A DNA stretch of 64,000 nt from Phoronis australis. Taxonomy: Eukaryota > Animalia > Phoronida. The translations under genes and the position numbers were made by a program. A model generated the notes under the pieces. It had not been told where the DNA came from. It searched no databases and saw only the letters and a list, made by a program, of their open reading frames with translations. How positions within the stretch are numbered: position 1 is the stretch's first letter; every line of letters starts with the position of its first letter. The DNA lies in contig NMRA01000020.1 in the NCBI GenBank assembly GCA_002633005.1, forward strand, positions 950,803 to 1,014,802. Reading direction: 5' to 3'. This document shows positions 1-54,768 of this stretch, piece by piece.

Positions 1-140
1 AGACTATTTCTGCCATTTACCGGAGCATTCTGCCAATATGGCGCATTAAAGACATTTTTTTACTTTCACTTGATTTTTTGAAGAGGAAAATGGGATAGTA
101 AAGGCAGAGATAAACAGAGTAAAAAAAATAAACTACAAAC

Positions 141-329
141 TTCTATGGCGTCGTCAATGTCTTTGAAGTAGACAAAGCCAAATCCTCGAGACCGGCCACT
201 ATGATGATCGTAGACGATGTTGGCTTCATCCAGGGGACCGTAGCGACCAAACACATCACGAATGTCGCGTTCCTGAGTGTACAAGCTCAAACCAAACACT
301 CCCAGACAGTTGGATGCATCGGGATTGTC
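141..329 (-). CDS. tra2: Transformer-2 homolog, coding exon 5 (RRM, RNP2 to RNP1); gene continues beyond the left edge
   Basis: cag|GAC...GAA|gtttgt, 189 nt, phase 0-0. Translates [63 protein letters not shown], matching the TRA2A/B RRM ([17 protein letters not shown]...RSRGFAFVYF). Confidence 0.97.
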
Positions 330-929
330 CTGCAGGAAAACAAGACTTCACAATAATCATTGGTCTCAAGAGTTTCGATGATAAGCTGTTCTCTTGCTCA
401 AAGTAGAACATGTCATAAACATAGCATTACAAAGATAATTATAGTAAACAAACACTACCATTAAAGCCTACCTTAAATGGAAACGCACATAATTTGTTTG
501 CCACAATATACTTTGAGCACCACCCTGAGCACATCAATGTCAAAAACTGCAGAGCGTAATGAGCAGTCAGGCTTATTGAATTAAATGTTTGCCAATGTCA
601 CTTTCCATCCAACTACTCACAGCCGTTTTGTCTTTTTTCCAAGGTGATGCAATACGGGACGAAAAGGCTAATTCACAAATCACTTGACAAGACGTTAGTG
701 ATTAAATCGTGTTTTCTTATGTTGCTTATGATACTTAAAAGTATTGCTGCAACTATCAAGGTGCCCAAATACATCCAAAATAATAGGTCTATTCAAGGAA
801 GGATGCAACTGAAACTGTTAGTTATCTTAACCATTTGAAGCTAACGTCAACCACCAAAAAAATCTCATGCGACAGTTTTCGTGTAAGTGCACAAACACAT
901 GGAGAATAGCATTCGTAAAATAGACTCAC

Positions 930-999
930 TCGGTTGCCAATGTGTCTTCTGCGACGAGACATAGGTGAGCGACTGTGACTTCTGTTCCGGCGACCATTA
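930..999 (-). CDS. tra2: tra2 coding exon 4 (end of RS1 domain)
   Basis: cag|T AAT...CGA|gtgagt, 70 nt, phase 2-0. Encodes NGRRNRSHSRSPMSRRRRHIGNR, the conserved SPMSxRRRHxGNR motif that precedes the Tra2 RRM. Confidence 0.95.
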
Positions 1000-1240
1000 C
1001 TGAAAATAGGAATGCTCAAGATGATGGCTTAATTCTACAAAAATCTCCGGAGAGCCACATTACAATACAGTATCAGAAATGACTAGTGTTTTGGTCTGCT
1101 GCAAAATTTGTCCACGGGGACAAGACAAGGCAACCATAAGTTTTATTTTTGTTAATGTTCAGAAGGCAAGTCACAAGCTACTGCCTTCAAACCATCCATT
1201 TTTGATACTCTTGGATATTCTGAGGTACTTAACAACATAC

Positions 1241-1330
1241 CTTCTTCCTCTGTAGCTGTCACTGCGACGGCCATAAGGACTTCTAGAGCGAGATCTTGAA
1301 CGTCGACGTCGCTGATATGGGGAACGTGAC
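1241..1330 (-). CDS. tra2: tra2 coding exon 3 (RS1 domain)
   Basis: ttcag|G TCA...AGA AG|gtatgt, 90 nt, phase 2-2. Encodes SRSPYQRRRRSRSRSRSPYGRRSDSYRGR. Confidence 0.92.
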
Positions 1331-1386
1331 CTGAACAAATGAATATTAACATGATTTGAGTGCTCGTCTGTCAGAAACTCTTGTTA

Positions 1387-2275
1387 CAGTATTCACCCTA
1401 ATAAGCGCTCAGGCCCCAATAAGCGCCCCCACGCGTTTGCACTAAAATAAGCGCCCAGCCCATGAACTTGTATACATGTGAAACCTAGAGTTCTAAAACT
1501 CTACAGTAACGTCTTCAATTTATCAATACTATCCGACAATCCTGAAAAAATCATTGTGCGACAAATTTCAAGACCACGAGCCTATCTGCAGATATTTAGC
1601 CGTGAATATACACTTCAAACCTTTGCAGTGCTTCAAAAAGAATTCAAAAGTTTGGCAGACCTCGCGAGTCACGTGTCCCACTAAGGTCTGACCTTTCAGA
1701 ACAGACATAGTGTACTTGTCAACGGGGGTGAATCTTCCTTCACTCCGCACACACAAACACAAAGACGAAATTCAAAACAAACGTCACGTGACAACAACAT
1801 GTGTGTTCGTTCAGATTTTTCTCGTGTTGCGAGGTGCGATCTAGCGTAAATTTGGACTTAATATTCAGTTAATCCGGACTCCACAGGAACTTAAAAATCT
1901 TAGGGACGCTAAGAATTTCATGTAATTTGTTGAGTCGAAGCCATTTTTATTGAAGAATTCAAGTTGCCCTATGAACGATTGCGAGGCAGCGACTGATAAG
2001 GCAATAGTCGGCGAGTTTTCGCCCTGGGATTTTCCCACAATTTTCTAAAAAAGGATCTTAATTTAATAACGAAGTTTGATAGCAATGCACCACACTTTTG
2101 TGGAAAGTCTGTCATAGGCTACAAATACGTTGCAGAGCGTAAATTTGATGAATCCTAGCTTCCGATTTCACCCGTTTCGGAGACTAGGTTTCAACTGCCT
2201 TAGGCTACGATAAGCACCCTCCCTCCCCAAAAAGAGTTTTCTAAGCGCCCTGGGTGCTTGTTAGGGTGAATACGG
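1387..2275. mobile_element. Non-autonomous DNA transposon with TA TSD (Tc1/mariner/pogo-like termini), family A copy 1
   Basis: TA|CAGTATTCACCCTAATAAGCGC ... GTGCTTGTTAGGGTGAATACGG|TA terminal inverted repeats. Internal sequence is shared with 5563-6099 and with 6570-6800 plus 8754-8875. Confidence 0.85.
1501..1762 (-). pseudogene. Frameshifted HIRAN-like domain fragment carried inside the family A element
   Basis: ..DKYTMSVLKGQTLVGHVTREVCQTFEFFLKH..LKCIFTAKY, then after a frameshift ARGLEICRTMIFSGLSDSIDKLKTLL*. Resembles the D.YAV.V....VGHVPRE...FL..GG...C.VTG...GLEIPC...F.G pattern of invertebrate repeat-borne HIRAN-like ORFs (recalled pattern). Confidence 0.6.
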
Positions 2276-2879
2276 TATATCGTTGATATTTATTTCAATG
2301 GCCTACTGAAGGGGCATTTTGTCACTGTTTAGTTCTCAACAAACTCTTTATAGAAAACAAAGCACTTTGGTATTTAAAAACAATTACCATACATCCAAGC
2401 CAGAATTGCTGCTGATTGAGAAAGCAGCTCAAGACATACCATACATGCACAATTTTCTTAATCACGATGGAATTTCATTCCTATTACCAACTAAAGACAC
2501 GTTCAAGCAAGCGCCTAAAATATATCATTTTCTACAAATTTAGGTTTGGTCAACCACAAAAACTTTCAAGAGCTTTCTTGGGTCACCGACGATTTTCATG
2601 TTCTTGTTGGCAACATAAATCAAGTCCTATCACGGTATGGAAATTTATGAGCTTAAGTGTCTCAATATATTTTTCATTTCAGGCAGCTAAATACCAATGA
2701 AATGCAGTTTCAATTGTTTTCACATGGCTAATTGAATTTGATGAAACCCAATAAGAGAATTTTAGGCCACAACACCAAGAACAGACACCACTACTCAGTA
2801 AGTTGAGAAATAACACCAATTATAGTAACAAAGGACTTCTCTCTAGTCTCAAATTGACAAAACACAAACTCTGGAATAC

Positions 2880-3031
2880 CTGGATTTTGAGTAGGAACGT
2901 CTACGTGATCTGGAACGTGACCGCTTGACTGACGGGGACCTTGAGCGTGATGCAGAGCGAGACTTGGCGCTGCCCGACTCTGCAGCCGGAGACCTACCAG
3001 GTGCGGGTGAAGGTGAGCGAGAACGGCTTCC
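2880..3031 (-). CDS. tra2: tra2 coding exon 2 (RS1 domain)
   Basis: tacag|GGA...TCC AG|gtattc, 152 nt, phase 0-2. Encodes GSRSRSPSPAPGRSPAAESGSAKSRSASRSRSPSVKRSRSRSRRRSYSKS. Confidence 0.92.
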
Positions 3032-3348
3032 CTGTAGGCAACAATTTCAAATGCTTAGCATTTTGTCACACAAGAAATAACACTAACAGTAGAAAGTCCA
3101 TTCACATTTCACACCATGACCTTTTTAAAATTTGGAAGTACCGAATGTGCTTTACAGAGTCATTAAGAGAAAACACTGAGATAGAGTTTGATATTTGGTC
3201 AGTGAGACAAAACCCAACAGGGTACCCCTATGACACAGGCACAATGTGTTCTGATCACCTGCTTTCTCCTTAGGTAAGGGCTGAATGGGAAACCAGTCAT
3301 CATTGTGCGCACAATTCATCCCTACTGTCCTGTTTGACTTAAAATATA

Positions 3349-12420: not shown

Positions 12421-15142
12421 TCACGGTGGTTCTTGTTAACCAGCTTGGTGGTGTGTGAAAGGGAATGCGCAATGTCCTACACCGAAACTATTGATCATTT
12501 GCGACTGTTTGATTACTGAAATCAAAATCCTCGTGATTAACTTAGGTTAACCAAAACTTGGATTCATTTTTCAGACAATATTAATTTGGGATGGACATGT
12601 AATTCATCATGGCGAATGATTGCCGTGCGACTGTTGATGCAATACCAAAGACTGTGAATTCTGGATGCGCACCGATTTCGACCTTTTTAACTGGCTATGG
12701 AAAATCGAATTAAGCCTTTTAATTTCAGAAAATCGGTCTTATAATATTCCCTGCCAGGATAGGATCATCTGATTCCGTTACCAACAAGAAAACCGGAGAC
12801 CACCAAGGACTCATGAAAACGCTGACCCACGAAAACGCTGAACTCTCGTATTGGAGTTGGTGAATCCTAAATCACGATTTTCGAACGCAGGCACGTCACT
12901 TGCTCGCGGCTCAGCATTCACAATATGGGATGAGCTTGATAAAGATTTTAAATCCCAAAATACTTCAGTTGAGAATTCAACACTGACAGCTAAACAACCG
13001 TGAAATGGACTACACTGACATCAAGAATTGACACCAATTTGCCGTCAGCAGGTGAAAATGACTTGAAGGTATTCACTTTTAAAAAACATCCATAAAGCCG
13101 CCTACCCACCAAGAAACAAAGTTCAGATTTAGATCACTTGCCCCGAAAAATGATCTCGGCCTTTACCTCATTCAGACGATCATTGATTTGTGTGTTTGCA
13201 AGGACCTGACAGTTCATTATTCCTTTAGAGCATGAGTCAACTTATAGAGCCTGGTCTCAATTGCAATAGCGAATTGTCAGTTCTTCGGCAGGCCTGAAAT
13301 CACCACCAATTTGACTGAGAAATAACTTGATGCCAATGTCATAACACATGCAGAAAGTGGCCTATACTATCAAAAATTTCTTTTGTGGTGGAAGGCAAGT
13401 TTACCGATACATGACATCAATTAGTAAAATCAAACGCATTTGGCATAATAGGCAGTTTCCTGCTGTAACTTTCCTGCCCTGTAACCAGAAACGACTTCAT
13501 GTACATTCTATTGTCTGCCAGTCAGGCAGAATGACATTCAATTAAAAACTGTTAACATGCCCTTGGGCAGTTGTTACTCTAGCCTGTGAAAATTGCAAGG
13601 ACAGTTTGCCAATAATTGTACTCATTAACAGTTCAAAATTGATTGTAAAATGAAAATAGCTCAGCAGGACGGTTCGGTTTGTTGCTAACACCAATAAAGC
13701 ACGTCAAAATGTTTTGTAAGATACTGCACCGGAATAGATTGATCAAAAGAAATGTTGCAACTAATTTCAGCGTCCCCTAGTGTACTTTCCTTGGCCAACT
13801 CCAGAGCCACAATTTCTTGTTAGCAGGATATTAACACGGTAGGTAAAATACCAAAAAGATTGTATTTTGATTTTATGATATTACGAGTATTGGATGTCCA
13901 TTGGCATAATCAGATTTTATAATCAAATCTTGGTCAGGAAGTTGCCATTAGACTTGGTGCATCTGCGAAATAGCAAGTCTTTGTGAGCCATGCTTTACAC
14001 AGAATGCTTTGTGTTCTGACAGGCACGCCACAAGTTATGTTCATTACAGGTATTTTATTACAACTTTTACAAGATTCTAAATAAAGTTGTAACAATCTGA
14101 GAGCCTTTGTGCATGTTTTCTGCAAAAGACAATTTTTGTAGACAACAGTAGAACTACAATACAGTCAGGTCAGCAATAGAGCAGTGTGTTCAACTGTCGG
14201 GCAGAGAATATGTGTAAATAATACTAGAATAACCATTATCTCAATATAAATAAATTTAACACATAAAGTGCATCGTTGCATATTAAAACTACATCATTCA
14301 GCTGACACCATAAATCACTTCAAAGCAGAGACTCAAAGATATAAATCTGCCCTGTGTATATGAGACACTAATCTCAGCTTCAACAAGTGAATGTTTGAAA
14401 ACAGAGAATGTTCACTGGCTCTTACCACCTCCTGGGGTGACAGTGCCCCCTATTGACTGATATCACAGAGAGGTGGCAAGACCACGCAAGTTTCAGTGTG
14501 ATATCTTGAGTAGTCTAGTCACGGCATGTAACCTCACATGACTTCACTTATCAGTAAGCAAAAAGTGAACATTATTCAACAGCAAAATGACATTGGTTTC
14601 AATTATTTGACACACAAAATTGTCCTGAGCTTATTCCTCAAAATTTCAACACATCTGAGTTCAGGTTTTCAATGAACTAAATGAGTTTTTCTTTTAGACA
14701 AACTTCTCACAGCAGTTTGGTGTAACAAATTACCATGACCAAAGAGTGAGATTCTAAATAACTTAAAACCAATGTAGTTGACTGGCAGGGAATTCAGTAA
14801 TCCTTGAGTCAAATAGAATACGGTCCTTTCAGCATACATTATTAATTTTTTTCAATCCTGAAAAATCGAAGGCAAAATCCTTTATTTTTCACATCCTGTC
14901 CAATTTATTTTATCAACCTAACTCACAGTATAGCAGGTAAAGATCCTTGGTACAAAAGCAAGAGATGCACGTGACCGTTTCATTCCATTTTGAGTGTCGG
15001 CATCAACATAAGCGTAATAAAAGTGTATTCCAGAAATACATCATGACAACCAAGGATATCAAATTCACTATGACCACCAATGTGTAGAATTCAACATGGT
15101 AGTCATCAAATGTATCAAATCCATGCATCATTGTTGCGTAGG

Positions 15143-15410
15143 CTAACACACAGCTAGTTGTTCTTCCGACAAGCTTCCACATGTAACATTATTGTTTATG
15201 CTCTCCGGAAATGCTGTAAGACTGTCTCTCAGTTTATATTTTTTGGCAGGTCCAACATCCTCCACTGCACAATCATCGTTGTTATTTGTTGTCAAGGCGC
15301 GTCTGCAGCCAATGGGTGAACCAAATGGTGATCGCAGAGGCACCGAGGTGCAATGTTCATCAGATCTTAACCACGGGTCTAGAAGACATTCACTAGCTGA
15401 TAATCTCTCA
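15143..15410 (-). CDS. STK17: DRAK/STK17-like kinase, last coding exon (subdomain XI and C-tail)
   Basis: tacag|T GAG AGA..., 268 nt. Encodes ERLSASECLLDPWL...GPAKKYKLRDSL...EQLAVC*. The AKKYKLRDSL segment resembles the DRAK C-tail SKRFRFDDSL. Confidence 0.92.
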
Positions 15411-15947
15411 CTGTAGAAACAAAAAGTAGGCCATTAACAACGCTATTCAGTGACTACACAACTTCTGCGACAAAACCTATACTCGAGACCACGGGAGAAA
15501 TGCCCATCGGAAAAATTTAATGTTAATCAGTAAAGCGCCGATGACATAAAGCTTCCGACACTGATCCAAAAAGTTTGTAGCAGAAAAGTGTTCACATCGG
15601 CTGGTAGTTGGATGGTAATCTGGAGTGCCAGTCACCAAAACTAACTATTAATCTAAATAAAAATCAACCTACCATACTGGGCATTATGCCACCCAATCAG
15701 CGGAGTCGCCCAAGCATTGATCAACACGTGATCAAGGTGCAAGACAAAAATTGAGCAAGAATCTTGGTGAAAACTTGAAACAATGGAAAAATTGTGCGAT
15801 TACTTACTTAAAGGAAAACAACATCAGTTAACCTAAAAGAGCACTAGAGAAAAGTTACAACACTTTCCTGTTTTGGGTTTGTCATTTTACTGATTTTCAA
15901 CAAGCGAAAATCACTTTCATATATATCGATGATGCAGTTCTATTTAC

Positions 15948-16127
15948 CTTGGTTCCCTAACGAGACACTTGCTAATAAAGTCTTTTGCTTGGTTTGAAAC
16001 GTCAGCAAACAAATCCTCCGGGAAGTCCAGATTGACCTGTGCTATATTGAGGAAGGTTTCTTGCTTGTCATCTCCAGCAAACGGTGAATGGCCAGTTAGC
16101 ATTACATAGGCTAGAACTCCAATACTC
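15948..16127 (-). CDS. STK17: DRAK/STK17 exon 6 (subdomains IX-X)
   Basis: ccag|G AGT...CCA AG|gtaaat, 180 nt. Encodes [59 protein letters not shown], including the DRAK signature [15 protein letters not shown]. Confidence 0.96.
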
Positions 16128-16752
16128 CTGGAATACGGGCACAGTCATGGGTTAAAGAACCAATCAATATGGTTTTGAGTATCAGAAGACATAAATTGTA
16201 ACTAAAATTGATCTGCATTGCTTTAAAGGTTGAGCAGCCAGAATGAGGCATTCTTGTGACCAGACTCGTGTCATTTTCAAATCTGCAACAGGAATTTTTG
16301 TTAGCAAAATAGATTTCAAATAGATCATCACAATTGAGGCAGACACTGAATTGAGAATGTCATAAAATATCAAAAACAATGACAGTCATAAATATCAGGG
16401 TTATTAGCCATCGGTGATTAATAAAATAGACAATGTCCCTCTCTCCACACTTGACTGAAAACAAAGATAAATGTTTGTAATTCAGTCAGAGGCTTGATTC
16501 ATGCTGACAAGTGATGCGGGTTCACCATTTTATCACGGACTTCATTCACCCTGTCATCTGCTTTATTACCCTTCCACAAAGATTTCCTTTATCAGCATTC
16601 AAATTCAGCAAAAATGACCCTGAATGACAATTCTAATCTCAGACACAGAGTTCAAATGGTTTGCTGTAAACAACATCAGTCCCCTGGGAGCCAAACATTA
16701 AGACACCAAGTAGTAATCACTTACACACATTGAATTATCTACATCTACTCAC

Positions 16753-16801
16753 CAGATGTCAGTGTATGTACTGATAGGTTCATAACTAAGAACTTCGGGG
16801 G
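16753..16801 (-). CDS. STK17: DRAK/STK17 exon 5 (APE motif)
   Basis: ttcag|CC CCC GAA...ATC TG|gtgagt, 49 nt, phase 1-2. Encodes APEVLSYEPISTYTDIW. Confidence 0.95.
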
Positions 16802-18247
16802 CTGAAATGAACAAGTATTGACCATAAAATACAATGGCTGATTATTGACAACTTGATAAGCACTCCTTTGTTTTCCTCACCAACTTATGGCTTGAGAAAA
16901 TGTACTTTGTCCACTGTGGGAGCACAGTACACTTACTGAACATGACACTAGGTGGCATTTTGAGTACTTGCTGTTGGTCTGCCTTTAAGTGCAAATGAAA
17001 TATGAAGGAGATAGAATGATCTTAAGTATCAAAAATAGACACCTATAATAACATTAACACTGGTTTCGAAATGAGTAATTAAGTTGGCAAAGAACAGTTT
17101 TTAAGGAAAAAAATCAGAGATTGATAATACCGGTAAATTCATAATGTACCATGGATTTCTTCACTCATGACCACAAAGTGGGGCCAAAAATTATTTGTTG
17201 TGAATTTATTATTAATCCCGTCATCCCCAATAACACTTTAAGCAAAATATGTGAAATATATGATAAGTCGACAGAACTCAGTGTGAACAATATAGCAACT
17301 TAAATCAAGCAGGCATAAACAGAGAACCTTTTTCAATGTAAACATTCACACAAGTTTGATAATCATATTGTAAATTGTGCACTTAAATTACACGTTAATA
17401 CATGCAAGTCACACAAACCCATTCTTTCCCACTTCTGCATCCAAAAAAATATTCTTGGGGCAGCACATTTATAGCAAAATTTCACCAGTTTGAGACAAAA
17501 TATGGCAAACAAGAGATTTTTTCAACTTTTAGATTCCATATCGTATCTAGATAATATAATGAAACATTCTGCATAGTCAAAACAATGCGTAAGCCTTTGA
17601 AATAACAATAACGATCAATTTTGGCAACGTTTTGACTGTCTTAAATTGGTGAACTTTCACTACAGTCATACTCCGGTAAGACAGTATGGGTTTAAAGAAT
17701 AGCTAAGCAAAAAGTTACAAAATGATCAAGGTAGCAACAACAAGAAGAAAGTTAAGCATCAGAGCAGAAAACCATGAAAATGGTGACACTGCCAAGAATT
17801 GGTACCACAAAGGTTATACACTGAATACATTGGAACATGATATCATCCATTGCATGTCATATTGTTATATTGAAGTTAAAGTTGGGAGAATAATCACTAC
17901 TTTTTTCCCTATATAATGAGGACCAAAGTCGCTAAAAAATAAAATAATATGAAAAAATGCATGCGAGACTCTCTTTGGTTGAAAGTCAAACGAATGATAC
18001 AAAACACAAAACTGATCTTTAGGTCTTAACCTGTGAATTGACTTGCAAGTTTTATGCAGTCTAAGAATGAAGGTTGTTGATTATTGTGAGGCACTCAACA
18101 GGGACATTCCACTATTGCATAATCACATGCTATTTCACTGTAAATATCAAGTGTATAACTTTCATGAATATGGGCACACAGAGAAAGGAACAAGGTTATA
18201 AAGTTTGCCATCATTGGGATTTGATGGCCCAGTTGGTTGACTCTTAC

Positions 18248-18374
18248 CAACGTAGTCAGGTGTGCCGACAATAGCGCAAACATCTTTGCTGTCATGAACA
18301 AAGTGGGCGCAGCTAAAGTCGGCAATTTTCAGCTCGCCTTTCGGATAGGTATCCATTAGTAATATGTTCTGGGG
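18248..18374 (-). CDS. STK17: DRAK/STK17 alternative exon 4B (activation segment, DFS variant)
   Basis: ttctgcag|CCC CAG...GTT G|gtaaga, 127 nt, phase 0-1, open frame. Encodes PQNILLMDTYPKGELKIADFSCAHFVHDSKDVCAIVGTPDYV. Confidence 0.88.
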
Positions 18375-19162
18375 CTGCAGAATAGTGAAAGAATATGACA
18401 CAATCAGGTTTGTCTGGGACATCGACAAGTCGCGGCACAGACAAAACTGAAGACCACCTGCTGATTTTCATGCATGGCACTGCCTCTTGTTTGACGGATG
18501 TGCATACCAATCTAGGAGCAGGTTTTCTACATCTCAGCTTATTTTTACCAACTCGTAAACGATTTTCTAGAAATCCAAGAGAACATCAATGCAAACTTAA
18601 AATTACTGAAACATGCCAGCAATGCTGAGCTGACCGCGAGTTTAAAGCCATGCATTAAAAATCAGAAAGAATCGACAATGTCAGTATATGTCGTGCTTTC
18701 AGAGAAACGAGGTATCCTGTTTGTGGCATACGTCTCAAGTCAGTGGACTTCAATACGGACTACAATGTTCTTTAAAGAACAACCAACTAACTCCCTCAGG
18801 TATTCCAAAACCAAGTCACTGACTAAGTACTTCACAAACATGTTACCTCGACAAATAATCATTTTACAGTTCATCAAAACGTGGTCACTCCTATAGAATA
18901 ATGGGACCGTGAGAGAGAATTCTGCCAAAATATTCATATTTGGAATATGTAGTGTCCAAGTAGGGTTTATTTTCGTTATTGTGGCAAAAGACATAAACAC
19001 TTTTTCTCACAGAAGACATCGCCTTTTGTTTGAGGTTAGTGGCAAAATGTATCCCAAAATTCTCCACCAAGAAAGGAGCAGGGCAGGTTTTGGAGAAACT
19101 GTTAAATGTCAGTAGAACAGATAGATAAGACCATCACCATGACAACAGGTGGTTTCACTCAC

Positions 19163-19289
19163 CAACATAATCGAGAGTGCCCACAATGTCCCTCAGTTCT
19201 TTGTGTTTCAACAAGAACCGAGCAAAACCAAAGTCGCACAACTTTATTTTGCCTTGTGGGTAGGGAGTAGTGAGCAGTATATTTTGTGG
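19163..19289 (-). CDS. STK17: DRAK/STK17 alternative exon 4A (activation segment, DFG variant)
   Basis: tttacacag|CCA CAA...GTT G|gtgagt, 127 nt, phase 0-1, open frame. Encodes PQNILLTTPYPQGKIKLCDFGFARFLLKHKELRDIVGTLDYV. Confidence 0.92.
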
Positions 19290-19588
19290 CTGTGTAAAAT
19301 ATAGGCAATATAGGGCGCAATTTGTCACAACTCACTCAGCAGAAGTATAAAATGTACGCAACATTACTAAATCTAGGAATCATAACAATTACATCATTCT
19401 AGACAAGTTAAGTATTACTAATAAAGTATACATCTAAGCACTTTTGCCACAAAAATAGTTTAACAAAATCTGGGAATAAGACAAAATGAAAACTGCAAAC
19501 AATGTCAAATTCAATTTAACATTTTGTGAGAAAATTTTGAAGTTATTCTTCCACAATAAAGTTCATAGTCAGCAAAGCAAATGCATAC

Positions 19589-19730
19589 CTTTAAGTCTAA
19601 ATGTACAATATTTCTTTCGTGCAGAAACTGAAGTCCCTCTAGTGTCTGCCTCAAAAGTTTTACTACGTCTTTCTCTTTGAAATCCTCCTCCAAACCCAAG
19701 CAATAGCTATGAAGTTCTCCCCCTGCAGCA
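19589..19730 (-). CDS. STK17: DRAK/STK17 exon 3 (hinge to catalytic loop)
   Basis: cacag|T GCT...AAG|gtatgc, 142 nt, phase 2-0. Encodes [47 protein letters not shown], with the non-RD HLDLK typical of the DAPK/DRAK/MLCK group. Confidence 0.96.
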
Positions 19731-20316
19731 CTGTGGAGGCAAAACGGTTAGTAAGTAAACATCCAAATAAACACGACTTTCAAAACATTCAAGTCCAGGA
19801 AGTACATGAAAAACTATACAGATTAGTGCAATGAAGTCTTGACAACTACAATTGCCGAACAACCTTCTTGCATTTATCTAGGGTTTTTAACATTGCTGTG
19901 ACTGCTCATATTATCTTATGGTAGCTATGGTACACGATTGTGACACGGAAAAAGCAAATTCACATCTCCCCCATCCTAAACTGATGAGATTTTATGGTAT
20001 GTCACACATATACCAGAGGTTGACGAATTCCTCAACACATCTCCTGGTATCTTGTGGGCTGTGTACATCCAAGTACTAAAACAGAATCTGTAAACACTGT
20101 CTGTAGAATGTGACACTTTCAATCAACATCTGGTTGACAAAGTGTTGTTTTTCTCTAGACCAACAAGTGGGAAAAGCTAAAATCTCTGACTTATCTACCA
20201 AAAAAAACATAAATCCTTTTCCAAGTTAATAAATCTGATACTAGTCAAGGGTCAACAGAAGCTGTGAAGTTAAGTTGACCATTAGCTTTGGAAACCAACC
20301 TCCCAGTTATTGCTAA

Positions 20317-20389
20317 GTGGTGCTATTGTCATCATTATTACTAGGTGGTGCTATTGTCATCATTATTACTAGGTGGTGCTATTGTCATC
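20317..20389. repeat. 28-bp tandem repeat, ~2.6 copies
   Basis: Unit GTGGTGCTATTGTCATCATTATTACTAG. Confidence 0.9.
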
Positions 20390-22952
20390 CCAGTTATGGC
20401 AAGGTGATGTAATGTGTCTTAAGAAATATGAACCACACTCTTTGACAACAGCAGTGACCCCTGTAATAACTTTTTTGGACAGGAAATTTGAGCATTCAAA
20501 CTTAGCAACGAAGCTGTCAAATCCTCCTGTTTACCTTGAAGTAAAATTTGAGTTGTTATTGGATTCGAAGCCAAACTGAGGCTCGGTGGCTCCCCCACCC
20601 AAGCGTGGACGTTAGTGGCAAAAGCCTGACAATTCACAATGAATCAACATTACCAATGCACAGTTATGTTTACCTAAGGACTTTATAATTGAATGTATTT
20701 TCACATAAAAAATACTGAAATTCCTTGTTTGACTGAAATGCAAGTTTTTGCACCTGTATCAAACAAATTTTGCAGAAAGATTCTCCTGAGTAAGGGAGAG
20801 AGCAGTCATTTGGGAGAAAGATTTGCAGAGCTGCTGACTCACCACGTAACTCTGTAATGGGAAGGAGCACCACAGGAATGCTGCTAATTTTCCATAAAAC
20901 TGACAGCTTTTTTTAACAATTAATTCATAAAAAATTAGATACGCAGCAGAAAGTAAAAAAACACTTTATTTTCAGCATTTTTAAAGTAATTTATGCATAA
21001 CATTTGAAACTTTCGTTGAACATGAGGTTTTAATTTTCATATTAGGGCAGCACCAGTCAAAGACAGAAACTTTTTAATGTAAGCCTTATCCTACATATGG
21101 ACTGAGCCTTCCAAAAAGGCAATGGTGATTATTAAACATAATATAAACCAAGTCAGATAAAATTACACGTAAGAGGACCTCTGGTGGCAAACCATGTACA
21201 TGGAAACCTGATAAGTTGTGTTTACTCAAGTCAATGTTATGACATTTAAACAGTATTAACAAAAGAGGATTACCAATGATAAGCTGTTTACAAGTGAAAT
21301 TAGACAAAAGAAAAGCGGCTCCAATCAGTGTGTGGCTATCATAATATGATGTTTAGGACCACATGAGACCTCAGCATTCAGTTATAAAATGGTATTCAGG
21401 TGGATTTCAGTGCTACATCCTATATATGGGTAGTGGACATAGTAGTAGTTTGTGACATGCATTCATCAGTAGGTCATGGAGGACAATCCACAATGGCATT
21501 ACCAGAGGAATGTTCTGTTCAAAAGAAACACAAATTTTATTAACCCAATCACTTGTGCCTAGTTACCAAAATGTATTTCTATTTGCAAAATGTATGCAAA
21601 TAAATGGGTTACAGCAAAATAATAGTGGCAAAATTAAAATGACTAAAAACGACAATGACCATTTTTATGGCATCTGTTCAGGGCAGCAAGTGGAGAGTGG
21701 TGATAGAGTGACTTACCAGTCTTATTACCACCCAAAGGAAATTTAATCTGGTTCACTTCGAAAGCTTCACAATCCCTGTTTATATTTTGTAACTCCTGTA
21801 ACAAACACCCAAGAGAAGAGTGCTTTTTTTTGCACTTTTGAAAAGTGCATCAAGAGCTAAAGCTAAACTTGTTTGAAATCCAAGAGCTGTAGTTACCTAA
21901 TTCGCACCATCTCTATAGACAGCTCGTAGCTGAGTGCCTATCAAGTGTTCTTGAAGGAAACCTTAGAATAACAGATTGATACGGCGAATCCCTGGTAATC
22001 TATTTGCGGAATTATCCCCAACGACTGGTCTGCAGGTAACCATGTACAGTATGCAATAGCCACTTGAATAACAAACTGTCAGTTTTGCGACAGGTATCGT
22101 TGTAGACTGGGCATTTTGTGATCAACGCCAGGTGTGTTCAACTGAGAATTCTTGAAAACAACCCGGCAGAATACTATGATGTAAAGATAAAAGTACGAAG
22201 AAAGAGTACTTGTATTACTCTTGGGGAAATCAAAATATACTTAAAACTGAAACTGTTGAACTCTGCTTTTTGTATAAAAATAAGTGTGAGATCTACAAAA
22301 GGCAAGACTGCAGCTGGCTTGAATATTTTGCTAGGTCTAATCAGATCAGATCAGAGCTCTGGGTTGGACATTTGTATTCGGAATTATTTTTTACATTCTC
22401 CATTCTACTTTACACAAAAAGTCAAGGCACAACAAGTGTCTATTTCCTGGGCACAAGTAATGAGTGTTTATTCCAGGTTTGCACTTGATGACCCATAGAT
22501 TCAAGTTATGAACATGACTTCAAACACAAAGTTACAGGGTTAATTGTGGGGTCATCAAGTGAATGGTAAGACTAGACAGCCATTCATGAAAAGCAAAGGG
22601 GACTCAGGTACAGAATAATAAACAGTTATATCAAGTTCGCACAGAAATAGAACGAACAGGTCAAAAATAATTTTGAGATGGATTTCAAGGAAAAATGTGG
22701 ACTTGGCCCAGATCAACATAGGTATAGACACATTAGTGTGCCAATGGTTAGTTACCCATGTCATTATCCAAATCACATGTTCAGCATGAGTTTTTTTAAA
22801 CAGTGAACAGTTACTTTGGTTTTCAGTTTTTCAGTACACTGTTTGTCGGTTACTCATACGTGTTGGCTTATTCAAAAACAAAACTTGACACTAAGCCAAT
22901 GACACTATTTGTGCATGGACCATGTGCCAAGGCAATAGCAGATATCACTCAC

Positions 22953-23165
22953 AGTTCCATGATGACTATCAAGTCATGCGCCGACTCAAACACTTCCTTC
23001 ATGTCGATCAATCGAGGATGATGCAGCGCAATCTCCAACATCACCAGCTCCACCAAGATATCCTTCCTGCAGTCTTGACCTTTGCGACTCTTACGGATGA
23101 ACTTTGCTGCGTACTCTTCACCAGTTTCCTTGTGCTTCACTTTCTTGACCACGGCAAACTTTCCT
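22953..23165 (-). CDS. STK17: DRAK/STK17 exon 2 (Gly-loop to subdomain V)
   Basis: tccag|A GGA AAG...GAA CT|gtgagt, 213 nt, phase 2-2. Encodes RGKFAVVKKVKHKETGEEYAAKFIRKSRKGQDCRKDILVEL..., with the DRAK-specific GKFAVV and basic-loop RKGQDCR motifs. Confidence 0.97.
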
Positions 23166-24540
23166 CTGGAGAACAATGTACAGAGTCAGTGTTGTATGAA
23201 CTACAGATGTATGTAACCAGACAAAACACCGTGTACTTGTCATGACGGCCAATATCATAGCTGTCATAACAGCAAAAAAAGACTCATTTCTGATAGTAAA
23301 TATAAGGGTGGCAAAACTCTAGATTCAGAATGACTTAGCTGTCTTCATAATTTCCCAGCTAATCTCCCGTCGTTCTGGGTCACGATGGAAGGGTATGACT
23401 CGTGAATTCGACTTCTGCTTGTACTGATATTTTCTGCAGTCTGCACATGACTGAGGACCATGGAAAATAGTGTCAAGATATGAATTAGTACCTTGAATCT
23501 CACATAGGTGGAAATGTGGTAGCAACATCTGGTCAAAACGAGTATGAATTGTTCGTTTGGGTATGGTAGTGCAGCAAAAGCTCATCAATTTATGAAATTA
23601 GGGAGATTAACTTTTCACACAATGTACAATTGAAAACAATTCACAATGTTTATAGATAAAGATGTAATTGTTGGACATTTTGATGCTTTCCAAGAATTAC
23701 TTTTCACCTGGTGCAAAAAATTTCAATCAAGTATTTATTGAGGGCGCTAGACTATTACATGACCAGTTTAGCAATATCTATGGACTAGCCTAAAACACCC
23801 TGGACAATGAAAATACTAAAAACTTTATAAAAAATTTACTAATTCAAACGATGATAATATTCACATAAAAAGGTGAAACGAAAAGGAAAAATAAATGAGC
23901 CACTAGTAATTGTTTTGGAAAGATTTGAATAGCTAATACATTGCAACCCAAAAGTATTCAAACAAAATGACCCTAAATACCCCGTCATGACGGCTGGGCA
24001 GACGCCAAATTCACCATCAGAGTAGTCTCCCCTTACCGCCGAGAATGAAGGGGAATTTACAGGACGGTTAGTAAGGCGACAAAACCATTCTGTAATTAGA
24101 AATTCACCACCAAGAATAATTATTACCAGTAATTTTTGCTGTTAACAGAATTATTCCTCATGAAGGGGGTATGGTGTTTTGTCTGGGTAGTTTGGTCTTG
24201 TAGTGTTGTTCAAGAAGGTATTGGGAAATATTCGTGGCAGTTCTAGAATGAGCATGGCACTGGAAGTAACAATCCGAAGACACATTTAGAAAATTAGGGC
24301 AGCGTTTTTGAGATTTCACTTTGAAATGAACGTCAAATTGAATTTTTTCATGTCAATGAAGCAGCTATTTCTCTATAAACGTGACTTACGTTTTTGCTAA
24401 ATTTTATCAAAAAGCCATGGTCATGTGACCCAATCAATGACAGTTTGATACAAAATAATAAATCAAATTTTATAGGCTTTCTACCTGCAGAAAGTATGTA
24501 TTTTATGCTGACAGAATCAAATTTTACAGTTTTATACATA

Positions 24541-29256: not shown

Positions 29257-32200
29257 TTTTAATAGAATAGCAATTATTATGGCAATCTGAGAACCCATGG
29301 AGAATAGCATCACTAACTTCCGTCTTTGTAGAAGAAATGAAACAAGCAAGAAAAACAAATCATAGTGTCTGACTGCAACTCAGACTTCACATGGATTTAA
29401 ATAAGAAATCATACAGTTGAGTAAATAATTCTTTAGTGCCATCCAGACAAATTGCCGCCAAGCACAATAAAGTCTTGACTTGTTTTATTGCTGATTAGTT
29501 TTGTATTTTATGGGCACAAAGCCCTTATCTAAATAAGCATATTTTTTCAAACTCCTGGTTGGATCACTCCCGCCCAGAGTCAAAGACAAACTGCATGTTT
29601 ATGTATTTGTAAGAATGCAATCCAGTTGTAACTTGTTTTTCATGCACTACAAAGTAGCCATTTCTGTATGATGCTTGACAGTTTAAAGTACCCTACTCAT
29701 GAAGCTGCATAACTGCCAAACACCCAGCATGGTCCAACAGGCTTACACCCATTTTAATTTTGGGAAGAGGAGAATTATGACACAACCTCACCTGTGGTAG
29801 GCCTACTAACTTAACAATGGGGAAAATAGGTACAAAAGTGACAAATCCAATGTGAATGAGTGTTCCAAACAATGGTGTTTTCAAGTTGGATTTGCGACAG
29901 ACTTTTACTCTAGTTCACTAAAACTGCACATATTACACGTTATAATTCCTCGTTTTGTCAGCAAACAGCGAAACGAAGTCCTTAAAAAGTAACGAACAGG
30001 TAAAGTTTAAAAAACATCATTTTTACTAAAGCCATTCAGTATTGTAGGGCCAGATCAAGAACAAAAACAAAATCACAAACAGGAAACGTAACTGGTCTGG
30101 ACAGAGAATGATGATTAAATTCCATTCGTAATTATCAAGGTTAGGCGGGTTGGGAAATGTTAAACTCTGCTGGCAAATGTATGCACATGTGTCCTGGGTA
30201 CTGACCCACAAATTAAATTGATAATAAAAAGTCATCTCCTCTTACTGGGTTCATAGGCAGTGGTAACATGTCATAGACTGCCATGAAACCTATTGTTGCC
30301 ATGGGCACCTTACCCTAGTCAGGTTACACAGTCAATTGTGTGACGCATCCTTGTATAAGTGGTGATGAATCAAAATTCCTTTAGTTTCCCCGTTTCCGAA
30401 AATATCCAAAAAATAAATACATTGGATCGAGATCTATACAAACTATTAACTTCGTATAGATAAACTTGTGTTTTCATCATAGTCATCTTTAGTTATTTGA
30501 AACCAAATTACATGTTGAAAGATATTTAATGTTGTTTCTTCGCAAGTACAAGATATGTGACACATGTAAAATGACAGCACCATGGCATCTCAGGCGGATC
30601 AAACCAACAGAAAATGTATATTTTTGTAAATGTATATCACAATCTTTGATAAACTGCATTCAAGAAAACCAGTTTGAAGTGTCCCTGATGAATTTGTGTT
30701 ACTCCTCAAATGGATGAGAATTTTTAGCCGCTCTACAACAAACTTTTGTTTTAATAAGCACTTGCTTTACATAATTCAGGATCCGTTAATGTTATGTAGT
30801 ATTCTCAAAAACTGAGTGACCTGTTAGAGTGTCCCGCGATCGTTTTACAAAGACTTCATTTGTGATATGTTTGTAAATACGTGCACTGTCAATCAAATTT
30901 CAGTTATTAACAGCCACAGGTCCTTTTAAAGATTGTACAATCTATAAGATGGAGTTCAGTAGATGTCTCGCAGCGAGAAAAAGAATCTCGCCAAAATCAT
31001 GTGCTCTCATTTAATACATGGCAACACCTCTCCCTATCTCACAGACTTTCTTTTCTAGCCAGGTCCTGGTATTATTGAACTCTACACAGGTTTACCATAA
31101 GTGCAGGTGAGAAATACTCATACTTAATGCCACTGTCAACTTCTCAAAGGTCTGCATATGATTTACAAGAAAATGTTCCGTGACAATAACTTTTATAGAA
31201 TGATTGCCATCAGTTGGTTTGAGTAGATGGATTAGCAAGGGGTCAAGGTCGCTAGTAACACTCCAAACCACTTGCTGTGCAGTAAAATCTTACCAATATC
31301 AGGCACAAATGTTTGGCATTTTGATCGTTTTTTCATAGATCAAAAACCTCTAATCTTTGAAGTGGTGTCCATAAATTCTTTGTCTAGTGGTGGCTATAGT
31401 ATGGTGTGTAAAAATGATAAGGCTTTACTTCTGGTTTTTTTAGATTCATCAATTTTGTNNNNNNNNNNNNNNNNNNNNNNNNNNNNNNNNNNNNNNNNNN
31501 NNNNNNNNNNNNNNNNNNNNNNNNNNNNNNNNNNNNNNNNNNNNNNNNNNNNNNNNNNNNNNNNNNNNNNNNNNNNNNNNNNNNNNNNNNNNNNNNNTTT
31601 TAATAGAATAGCAATTATTATGGCAATCTGAGAACCCATGGAGAATAGCATCACTAACATCCGTCTTTGTAGAAGAAATGAAACAAGCAAGAAAAACAAA
31701 TCATAGTGTCTGACTGCAACTCAGACTTCACATGGATTTAAATAAGAAATCATACAGTTGAGTAAATAATTCTTTAATGCCATCCAGACAAATTGCCGCC
31801 AAGCACAATAAAGTCTTGACTTGTTTTACTGCTGATTAGTCTTGTATTTTATGGGCACAAAGCCCTTATCTAAATAAGCATATTTTTTCAAACTCCTGGT
31901 TGGATCACTCCCGCCCTGAGTCAAAAACAAACTGCATGTTTAGTATTTGTAAGAATGAAATCCAGTTGTAACTTGTTTTTCACCACTCCTAAGTAGCCAT
32001 TTCTGCATGACGCTTGACAGTTTAAAGTACCCTACCCATGAAGCTGCATAACCGCCAAACACCCAGCATGGTCCAACACGCTTACACCCATTTTAATTTT
32101 GGGAAGAGGAGAATTATGACACAACCTCACCTGTGGTAGGCCTACTAACTTAACAATGGGGAAAATAGGTACAAAAGTGACATATCCAATGTGAATGAGT

Positions 32201-34367
32201 GTTCCAAACAATGGTGTTTTCAAGTCGGATTTGTGACAGACTTTTACTCTAGTTCACTTTAAAACTGCATCAATTACACGTTATAATTCCTCGTTCTGTC
32301 TTCAAACAGCGAAATGAAGTCCTTAAAAAGTAATGAACAGGTAAAGTTTAAAAAACATCATTTTTACTACAGCCATTTAGTAGTGTAGGGCCAGATCAGA
32401 AACAAAAACAAAATCACAAACAGGAAACGTAACTGGTCTGGACAAAGAATGGTGATTAAATTCCATTCGTAATTATCAAGGTTAGGCGGGTTGGGAAATG
32501 TTAAACTCTGCTGGCAAATGTATGCACATGTGTCCTGGGTACTGACCCACAAATTAAATTGATAATAAAAGTCATCTCCTCTTACTGGGTTCATAGGCAG
32601 TGGTAACATGTCATAGACTGCCATGAAACCTATTGTTGCCATGGGCACCTTACCCTAGTCAGGTTACACAGTAAATTGTATGACGCATCCTTGTATAAGT
32701 GGTGATGAATCAAAATTCCTTTAGTTTCCCCGTTTCCAAAAATATCCAAAAAATTAATACATTGCATCGAGATCTATGCAAACTATTAACTTAGTATACA
32801 TAAACCTGTGTTTTTATCATAGTCATCTCTAGTTATTTGAAACCAAATTACACGTTGAAAGATATTCAATGTTGTTTCTTCACAAGTACAAGATATATGA
32901 CACATGTAAAATGACAACACCATGGTATCTCAGGCGGATCAAACCTACAGAAAATGTATATTTTTGTATTGTATATCACAATCTTTGATAAACTGTATTC
33001 AAGAGAACCAGTTTGAAGTGTCCCTGATGAATTTGTGTTACTCCTCAAATGGATGAGAATTTTTAGCCCCTCTACAACAAACTTCTGTTTTAATAAGCAC
33101 TTGCTTTACATACCGGTAATTCAGGATCCGTCAATGCATGTAGTATTCTCAAAAAATGTTTTTAAAAAGTCGCAGCGAGTGATTTGTGTCCCTGAGTGTC
33201 CCGCGATCATTTTACGAAGACTTCATTGGTGATATGTTTGTAAATACGTCCATTGTCACTGGTAAAAGCATAAGAAATTGAACTTTTGCGGTAATATTTT
33301 TTGCTCTGCTGTGCATTACTGTTTAGTGCCCTAAGGTACAAACAAGGCAGGACAGCGTGCACTTCAGAGAACATCAACTGCCAACTGAGTGATTCCGGCA
33401 TATTTGTTGGCGTTTTCACGCATGTGGTCAGTGTTTAGGTTTTAACATGTGGAGAACACTGAAATGTGACAGGCCCCCTAGCACTGGTTGCAAACTGCCT
33501 CAGTGTTCTCCACACTCAAACATTCAAACATTCAAACATTCAAACAGGTCGCGTTTACAACCATTTTGGAAATTTAGACAGTGTGCAGTATGTGTATATC
33601 ATAGCGACAATGGAAAAAATCAATTGTTTCACGTGCTACTTAAACAGGTCAAAAGGAAAACCAAACAGGTCATGGAGAACAATGTGCCAATAACAAGCAA
33701 ACTCTACATTCATTTGCAAAATATCATTTTTAAATGTTAAATGTGTTTTCATTTTGTGCAGTGGAAAGATTACATCAATATAGACTTGCAAGATAATTCA
33801 ATCAAAGTTCAGTTATTAACAGCCACAGGTCCTTTTAAAGATTGTACAATCTATAAGATGGAGTTCAGTAGATGTCTCGCAGCGAGAAAAAGAATCTCGT
33901 CAAAATCATGTGCTCTCATTTAATACACGGCAACACCTCTCCCTATCTCACAGACTTTCTTTTCTAGCCAGGTCCTGGTATTATTGAACTCTACACAGGT
34001 TTACCATAAGTGCAGGTGAGAAATACTCGTACTTAATGCCACTGTCAACTTCTCAAAGGTCTGCATATGATTTACAAGAAAATGTTCCGTGACAATAACT
34101 TTTATAGAATGATTGCCATCAGTTGGTTTGAGTAGATGGATTAGCAAGGGGTCAAGGTCGCTAGTAACACTCCAAACCACTTGCTGTGCAGTAAAATCTT
34201 ACCAATATCAGGCAAAAATGTTTGGCATTTTGATCGTTTTTTCATAGATCAAAAACCTCTAATCTTTGAAGTGGTGTCCATAAATTCTTTGTCTAGTGGT
34301 GGCTATAGTATGGTGTGTAAAAATGATAAGGCTTTACTTCTGGTTTTTTTAGATTCATCAATTTTGT
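29257..34367. repeat. Tandem 2.2/2.8 kb duplication flanking an N gap (29257-31458 vs 31598-34367), likely uncollapsed alleles
   Basis: Highly similar copies with scattered substitutions. Copy 1 ends and copy 2 begins exactly at the gap edges. Copy 2 has an extra 542 bp (33259-33800). Confidence 0.9.
31459..31597. other. Assembly gap
   Basis: Run of N. Confidence 1.
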
Positions 34368-36696: not shown

Positions 36697-37073
36697 AAAT
36701 GACAGTCAGGTATTGGTTGAAACCATCTCAGGGCATAAAATGACAGTCAGGTATTGGTTGAAACCATCTCAGGGCATAAAATGACAGTCAGGTATTGGTT
36801 GAAACCATCTCAGGGCATAAAATGACAGTCAGGTATTGGTTGAAACCATCTCAGGGCATAAAATGACAGTCAGGTATTGGTTGAAACCATCTCAGGGCAT
36901 AAAATGACAGTCAGGTATTGGTTGAAACCATCTCAGGGCATAAAATGACAGTCAGGTATTGGTTGAAACCATCTCAGGGCATAAAATGACAGTCAGGTAT
37001 TGGTTGAAACCATCTCAGGGCATAAAATGACAGTCAGGTATTGGTTGAAACCATCTCAGGGCATAAAATGACA
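36697..37073. repeat. 41-bp minisatellite, 9 identical copies
   Basis: Unit AAAATGACAGTCAGGTATTGGTTGAAACCATCTCAGGGCAT, period 41, no spacers. Confidence 0.97.
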
Positions 37074-50108: not shown

Positions 50109-50446
50109 CATAGGTTGTTTTGTCATGTTTATATGATGTGAAAAAGTAAAAAAATACATAGGTTGTTTCGTCATGTTTATTTGATGTGAAAAAGTAAAAA
50201 AATACATAGGTTGTTTTGTCATGTTTATTTGATGTGAAAAAGTAAAAAAAAATACATAGGTTGTTTCGTCATGTTTATATGATGTGAAAAAGTTAAAAAA
50301 TACATAGGCTGTTTCGTCATGTTTATATGATGTGAAAAAGTTAAAAAATACATAGGTTGTTTTGTCATGTTTATATGATGTGAAAAAGTTAAAAAATACA
50401 TAGGTTGTTTCGTCATGTTTATATGATGTGAAAAAGTAAAAAAAAA
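50109..50446. repeat. ~48-bp minisatellite, 7 copies
   Basis: Unit CATAGGTTGTTT(T/C)GTCATGTTTATATGATGTGAAAAAGT(A/T)AAAAAATA. Explains the repetitive ORFs at 50103-50471. Confidence 0.95.
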
Positions 50447-52744: not shown

Positions 52745-52791
52745 GTTTCATTTTGTCGGTTTCATTTTGTCGGTTTCATTTTGTCGGTTTC
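52745..52791. repeat. 14-bp tandem repeat, 3 copies
   Basis: Unit GTTTCATTTTGTCG. Confidence 0.85.
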
Positions 52792-54661: not shown

Positions 54662-54768
54662 CTGCCCAGAACACTTTGAATTGTGTAGACATTTGTTACT
54701 TGGTCTTGGCGAATTTTCGATGAAATTCTGTCAGTTATTTGAGTCAATCCGTTCATATTCTCATCCAT
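54662..54768 (-). CDS. STK17: DRAK/STK17 first coding exon, 31.5 kb upstream of exon 2
   Basis: gtaATGG...CTG GGC AG|gtgagt, 107 nt, phase 2. Encodes MDENMNGLTQITDRISSKIRQDQVTNVYTIQSVLGR, which completes the Y......LGRGKF Gly-loop. An in-frame stop lies upstream at 54841-54843. Confidence 0.88.

Follow-up and report, generated by a model that had tools for sequence, protein, structure and literature searches.

Does the tandem pair of related exons in this kinase gene give one locus two kinases, and if so, what does the choice between them change in the enzyme? The locus lies in a 64,000-nucleotide stretch of Phoronis australis DNA (the window, analyzed at its full length), where a DRAK/STK17-type kinase gene on the minus strand carries two versions of exon 4, here called 4a and 4b, between single copies of exons 3 and 5. 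The pair is a real, expressed, and constrained set of mutually exclusive exons, seen in one species. Mutually exclusive kinase exons are themselves a known class, and what is distinctive here is that exon choice switches the motif DFG to DFS together with the residue at DFG+1, with the odd form being the dominant one.

A DRAK/STK17 kinase gene with two versions of exon 4

The gene model has the following parts, in order of transcription and with the intron that separates the two versions of exon 4.

54662..54768, minus strand: exon 1, coding part; open frame, RNA loose ends at the exon 2 edge
22953..23165, minus strand: exon 2; glycine-rich loop, beta3 Lys57, alphaC Glu75; matches Pfam Pkinase
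19589..19730, minus strand: exon 3; 3' end encodes HLDLK, catalytic Asp152, non-RD type
19163..19289, minus strand: exon 4a; Asn157, DFG-Phe, basic activation loop, Leu in the P+1 loop (GTLDYV); minor form
18375..19162, minus strand: intron between 4a and 4b; 788 nt, GT-AG
18248..18374, minus strand: exon 4b; Asn157, DFS-Cys, His at DFG+3, Cys-Ala for Arg-Asp/Glu, GTPDYV; major form
16753..16801, minus strand: exon 5; 49 nt, APE motif; RNA joints and open frame
15948..16127, minus strand: exon 6; kinase C-lobe; RNA joints, open frame, Pfam Pkinase
15143..15410, minus strand: exon 7, coding part and stop; RNA joints and open frame; tail motifs

The sequence bears out the description in the earlier note of two paralogous 127-nt exons in phase 0-1, with AG acceptors, GT donors, and open frames. 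With either 4a or 4b, the seven-exon frame encodes 361 amino acids (aa), whereas inclusion of both exons leads to a stop after 216 aa and inclusion of neither to a stop after 175 aa (frame computation), so that, as had been claimed, one or the other is needed for the 361-aa kinase. Exon 1 is separated from exon 2 by an intron of 31.5 kb; the loose ends of RNA reads at the edge of exon 2 (233, 200, and 12 reads in runs X1, X2, and X3) exactly match 54665-54685, and we infer the start codon to lie at 54768. The joint between exons 2 and 3 is carried by 231, 184, and 28 reads of the same three runs. Exon 6 is 81% identical to its Lingula counterpart, and the tail motifs of exon 7 are common to the DRAKs of Lingula, Owenia, and Lineus.

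Some further features of the window concern the introns and a neighboring gene. Within intron 1, adjoining an N gap, two stretches are duplicated, one of 1.6 kb at 94% and one of 570 nt at 99% (29257-31458, 31598-33258, and 33798-34367), and these duplications may be an assembly artifact. The 3' end of exon 1 (54665-54686) forms a 22-nt inverted repeat, 91% complementary, with a stretch of intron 1 located 2.6 kb away (52042-52063). Short tandem arrays with units of about 82, 48, 28, and 14 nt lie in the introns at 36697-37073, 50109-50451, 20301-20409, and 52745-52791. At the left end of the window (66-3054, minus strand), and cut by its edge, is a gene for a transformer-2 (TRA2)-like splicing factor, with an RRM matching human TRA2-beta at an E value of 1e-24 and RS-rich frames.

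The identity of the kinase is consistent across searches. Both versions of exon 4 match positions 126-164 of Pfam Pkinase, and their best matches among solved structures are STK17A and STK17B (PDB 7QUE and 3LM0). A profile search returned 801 proteins at an E value of 1e-100 or better; the best 120 of these 801 are mostly from molluscs and vertebrates, include no named arthropod, and, where named, are mostly STK17A/B-like. The closest named relative found is the STK17A-like protein XP_013388197.1 of Lingula, with 68% identity in the kinase domain. As in DRAK/STK17, the 361 aa comprise a kinase domain, with HLDLK at 150-154, and a short tail without other domains, and the HLD catalytic loop is common to the Phoronis kinase, DRAK1/STK17A, and DRAK2/STK17B (DAPK family, CAMK group). 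A search of the ESM Atlas returned only generic kinase clusters. A 28-row kinase tree (P0051 left out; no non-DRAK outgroup) placed the kinase among lophotrochozoan sequences in a group that was weakly supported and poorly resolved, with Lingula and P0047 as the nearest rows. The DRAK orthologs examined have one exon 4 and keep the DFG glycine, whereas the Phoronis gene has two, one of them without this glycine.

Each exon is joined to both neighbors, one at a time

Exon use was read from three stranded raw-read runs (X1, X2, and X3, from one study, with approximately 18 to 19% of each run) and one contig set (X4), aligned over 15000-23300; a joint was listed only if at least 3 reads from 2 start points carried it. 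The earlier note had proposed a count of the junctions, and this count finds each exon joined to both of its neighbors in all three raw-read runs. Exon 3 is joined to 4a by 27, 28, and 12 reads (X1, X2, and X3) and to 4b by 90, 63, and 13 reads, while exon 5 is joined to 4a by 36, 40, and 1 reads and to 4b by 136, 129, and 14 reads. This amounts to 144 junction reads for 4a and 445 for 4b out of 589, favoring 4b by about 3 to 1, and a contig of X4 likewise joins part of 4b to exon 5. Against these 589 canonical reads, neither a 4a-4b joint nor a joint from exon 3 to exon 5 was listed in the three runs at the threshold of 3 reads from 2 starts. Since the four joints are present and those of the both-in and both-out messages are unlisted, 4a and 4b are mutually exclusive in steady-state mRNA, from which decay could hide messages with both exons or neither.

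The share of 4a was 22%, 26%, and 33% in X1, X2, and X3, without a significant difference among these three runs of one study (chi-square p 0.23). X3 must be regarded as a weak run, because its estimates of 4a use disagree between the upstream side (12/25) and the downstream side (1/15; Fisher p 0.013). No variant was listed at the DFS codon of 4b at a depth of about 120 to 140 (X1 and X2).

Both copies are constrained

The two exons agree at 74 of 127 nucleotides and 22 of 42 amino acids, and their peptides find each other at E values of 4e-11 and 8e-11 by tblastn in the 64-kb window, where the same searches with both peptides found no third copy of exon 4 (next best E value, 0.38). By codon position, 27, 33, and 13 of the 42 first, second, and third positions are identical, and 14 of the 22 shared residues are encoded by different codons, in line with what the earlier note had remarked. 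Its proposal of an old duplication with both copies under constraint is also supported: synonymous sites are saturated (pS 0.86) and pN is 0.30 (bootstrap interval of the difference, 0.28 to 0.87), which argues that both copies are old and constrained. Neutral evolution of one copy against a frozen partner would give a pS of about 0.48, which a rough binomial test rejects (p ~6e-5). The flanks of 4a align with those of 4b no better than shuffles do.

Variation in the RNA reads was also tabulated. Both polymorphisms in 4b are synonymous and none is listed in 4a; six other high-frequency or contig-borne coding variants of the kinase are all synonymous as well. Low-frequency differences (4/161, 3/207, and 18/292 reads), some of them nonsynonymous, may be errors; two more changes, both with low counts, fall at 22993.

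The swap alters the DFG glycine and DFG+1

According to the earlier note, the exon covers the catalytic-loop Asn, DFG, the activation loop, and the P+1 loop. All of this stands for 4a; for 4b, the part concerning DFG does not, as the DxG magnesium-binding motif that is present in isoform 4a (DFG) is absent from 4b (DFS). Both isoforms have the catalytic residues, with Lys57, Glu75, and Asp152 coming from the shared exons and Asn157 and Asp173 present in both copies. Thus, neither shows the loss of the beta3 Lys, the catalytic Asp, or the DFG Asp that defines a pseudokinase, as Lys57, Asp152, and Asp173 are in place.

For comparison, we used the orthologs among the matches listed, 126 proteins that gave 119 segments once six frames with exon 2 only and one missed by the pattern were left out. 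Among these listed matches, all 119 segments have the DFG glycine, and only Leu, Phe, or Ile occurs at DFG+1, which argues that the Ser and the Cys of 4b are real departures. Columns were compared over the 109 of these segments, among the matches listed, that have exactly 42 residues. Of the 12 columns invariant in the 109 segments, 4a keeps all 12 and 4b keeps 10 (Thr7 is replaced by Met and Gly21 by Ser). Seven residues of 4b are unseen in the 109 segments, including Ser175, Cys176, His178, and Ala188, and three of the seven fall at the DFG glycine, DFG+1, and DFG+3; the His at DFG+3 is also the residue found in DAPK1. Cys187 of 4b takes the place of an Arg found in 106 of the 109 segments, and at the next position, Asp or Glu in all 109, 4b has Ala. 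The four unseen residues of 4a include Leu193 in the P+1 loop, a position at which Leu also occurs in two hemichordate segments of 43 residues. As a whole, the activation loop goes from basic in 4a to slightly acidic in 4b, with two new cysteines.

In the wider family, the glycine is not invariant, with four DLEV and one DLDV motifs among 110 distinct segments, a set that takes in the matches from 1.84 billion protein representatives. Two other observations concern the same region: mollusc DRAK orthologs (P0007-P0065) have DLG in place of DFG and Cys at DFG+3, and a DRAK-like segment at metagenome locus L005 (699-782) reads DFV, which may be an error, the locus also having a frame change.

Predicted consequences for the two isoforms

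The earlier note had supposed that the isoforms differ in regulation or substrate preference. This is plausible from the sequence, and DFG versus DFS and Phe versus Cys at DFG+1 would provide a concrete basis for it. A natural DFS occurs in TbDYRK of Trypanosoma brucei, which is active and whose activity is about 70% as DFA and 13% as DFG (PMC7136023); its authors proposed a rigid, preactivated state from a low-scoring model and put DFS at 0.4% of human kinases. In LRRK2, the G2019S change turns DYG into DYS and raises activity (PMC13197926). Both cases have the same Gly-to-Ser change in the magnesium-binding motif as 4b, with the catalytic residues intact. However, in TbDYRK and LRRK2 the Ser is fixed in the gene or carried by a disease allele, in other kinase groups, whereas in Phoronis Gly and Ser alternate by splicing at a single locus. 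The DFG+1 residue, in turn, has been reported to largely set Ser/Thr preference, with bulky aromatics favoring Ser, and replacing the Leu of Snf1 at this position by Ser, Val, or Ile gives a Thr kinase (PMC3898841). STK17A phosphorylates the myosin regulatory light chain at both Thr18 and Ser19 (PMC13141761).

With these precedents in mind, we lean slightly toward the prediction that the two 361-aa products are both active and differ in resting activity and target choice. A similarly modest preference goes to 4a as a conventional, Ser-preferring DRAK and 4b as an active but stiffer and less Ser-selective one. The Ser of DFS would stiffen the motif in its "in" position, an effect that has been proposed for TbDYRK and agrees with the activating LRRK2 G2019S, and the change from Phe to Cys would relax Ser selectivity, which would be relevant to Thr18 and Ser19 of the myosin regulatory light chain. 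To our knowledge, DRAKs have no activation-loop phosphorylation switch; given this and their non-RD type, exon choice would serve as the activation switch. Two points count against the selectivity assigned to 4b: the main text of PMC3898841 does not mention Cys at DFG+1, and the effect of small residues at this position is described as context dependent (PMC9876800). The reading of two different enzymes is further weakened by the lack of a significant shift in exon ratio among the three runs and by searches, described below, that turned up no relative with the pair.

It is tempting to carry the idea further, although the following version is improbable. Exon choice would then switch between a DFG enzyme and a DFS form resembling LRRK2 G2019S that is preactivated, shifted toward Thr or dual Ser/Thr use, and possibly redox sensitive through the two new cysteines. 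In its boldest form, the 4b type would be an ancient second DRAK activation segment, which Phoronis would have retained as an alternative exon and arthropods as a separate DLE gene, comparable to the FYN exons and the Src-family paralogs.

Alternatively, the isoforms may be functionally almost the same, their differences being drift tolerated in a fast-evolving lineage, which we consider doubtful. Since both exons stayed in use after the duplication, both would have to stay foldable and active; the exon ratio does not shift between the three runs; and the branches of 4a and 4b in the exon tree are long (0.92 and 1.17, versus a median of 0.14), as is that of the whole kinase in the kinase tree. 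Moreover, single-copy orthologs get by with Cys at the Arg position (P0015) and with Leu or Val at the Pro of the P+1 loop (P0077, P0101, and Mytilus). Against this, 20 of the 42 residues differ, among them those at the two sites whose tuning effect on kinases is best known, and of the seven residues of 4b unseen in 109 segments, three lie at the DFG glycine, DFG+1, and DFG+3. An unlikely alternative from the opposite direction is that 4b has weak or almost no kinase activity and serves as a scaffold or damper, leaving most phosphorylation to the minor DFG isoform 4a. Substitution of the DFG glycine impairs some kinases (e.g., BRAF G596R), and 4b has lost both the glycine that is universal among the listed ortholog segments and the Arg-acid pair before the P+1 loop; however, 4b retains every catalytic residue, TbDYRK and LRRK2 can be active with Ser in this motif, and about three quarters of the message carries 4b. 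Finally, it is highly improbable that the pair is an assembly artifact (two alleles or paralogous genes placed in tandem) or that one copy is a dead pseudoexon. In three of three raw-read runs, both exons are connected to a common exon 3 and a common exon 5 by reads that mostly match at 99% or better, and the copies, at 58% identity, are far beyond allelic difference. Realignment of these runs over 16700-19800 at 80% likeness gave no further joints, and intronic depth in X3 is low over most of the stretch that separates 4a from 4b.

The interest of the pair lies in the positions that it swaps. Within the activation segment, no positions are better linked to activity state and Ser/Thr choice than the DFG glycine and DFG+1, and selection has kept two versions of them in an otherwise identical protein, both expressed. 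This provides a ready-made isogenic pair with which to follow Gly to Ser, the substitution that also activates LRRK2 in Parkinson's disease, within the CAMK group, and bears on the tuning of a kinase without a phosphorylation switch. Among cataloged systems (PMC8373072, PMC9741552, and PMC7954323), FYN (FynB/FynT) and MAPK14 likewise have paralogous exons of equal length, used one at a time, that swap a homologous stretch of the kinase. In contrast to the Phoronis pair, neither swaps DFG or the activation loop: the FYN pair encodes the SH2-kinase linker and the ATP-binding N-lobe, and in MAPK14 the swapped stretch belongs to the C-lobe and follows the activation segment. No paper describing 4a and 4b was found in open-license PubMed Central and bioRxiv full text, a scope that leaves subscription papers aside. 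STK17 and DAPK have no matches in the main text of PMC9741552 or the supplementary table of PMC8373072, and PMC7954323 mentions neither STK17 nor Drak in its main text; the supplements of PMC7954323 and PMC9741552 may include a DRAK entry from an insect or a fish. The string "splic" does not occur in a review of STK17A (PMC13141761).

How the choice may be kept exclusive

Several mechanisms could keep the two exons apart. Steric exclusion is unlikely, because the 788-nt intron between the copies is too long, and all four splice sites are GT-AG without a U12-type donor. Pairing of docking and selector RNA among the three introns was no stronger than in 20 shuffles each, and no long inverted repeat tying the exons was found. 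Messages with both exons or neither would carry premature stops 294 and 163 nt upstream of the last junction, i.e., by more than 50 nt. Given the intron length, the GT-AG sites, the lack of pairing, and these stops, the simplest and most likely account is that splice sites compete and that nonsense-mediated decay would remove the frameshifted both-in and both-out messages.

Age and spread of the pair

The 127-nt, phase 0-1 exon itself is ancestral: identical ends occur in five metagenome loci, two of them vertebrate-like. Of 45 such loci, 10 were inspected by tblastn. Two near-identical ones (L003 and L004) span exons 3 to 6 with one exon 4; L002, L007, and L008 also show one copy, seen from exon 4 onward only; and L005 and L006 have a different intron layout. 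No second exon version turned up within a cluster among the listed members of 10 clusters (15 of 23 in the largest) from molluscs, a brachiopod, an annelid, a nemertean, amphioxus, and a starfish. A word-index search gave no relative of 4b (seven candidates, none of which passed), which is weak evidence, and among 33 matches in 1.84 billion protein representatives none was closer to 4b than 57%. Overall, no relative carrying the pair was found in these distant loci and protein representatives, a set with no close relative in it. The two Lingula RefSeq isoforms of equal length (X1 and X2 in that record) were considered as a conserved exon pair and rejected, as they differ by one tail residue only.

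Both exons share the rare residues Tyr10, Phe25, Lys30, and Val36 (found in 4, 1, 7, and 8 of the 109 segments), which favors a lineage-specific duplication. However, Met7 of 4b, and in some cases its Glu14 and Cys33, also occur in arthropod-type DLE segments and in P0162 and P0173, which counts against such an origin. Trees of the 42 exon columns accommodate both arrangements, with a p-AU of 0.44 for a clade of 4a and 4b and of 0.47 for 4b with the arthropod-type group; the exon tree joins 4b to P0162/P0173 with support of 82/78, flagged as possible long-branch joining. The arthropod-type DRAK-like kinases (P0159, P0160, P0169, P0177, and P0182; DLE or DLD) resemble 4b in their nonglycine motif, their exon ends, and Met at exon position 7, some also in Glu14 or Cys33, but have an acidic residue at the place of the DFG glycine, where 4b has Ser.

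A further set of DRAK-like single-exon frames falls into two types, P0162, P0173, and P0184 on the one hand and P0168 and P0183 on the other. Both types have an unusual PNN start; one resembles 4b (Met7, Glu14, and Cys33), and P0168 and P0183 are canonical. These frames may come from another animal that has either its own exon pair or two separate genes.
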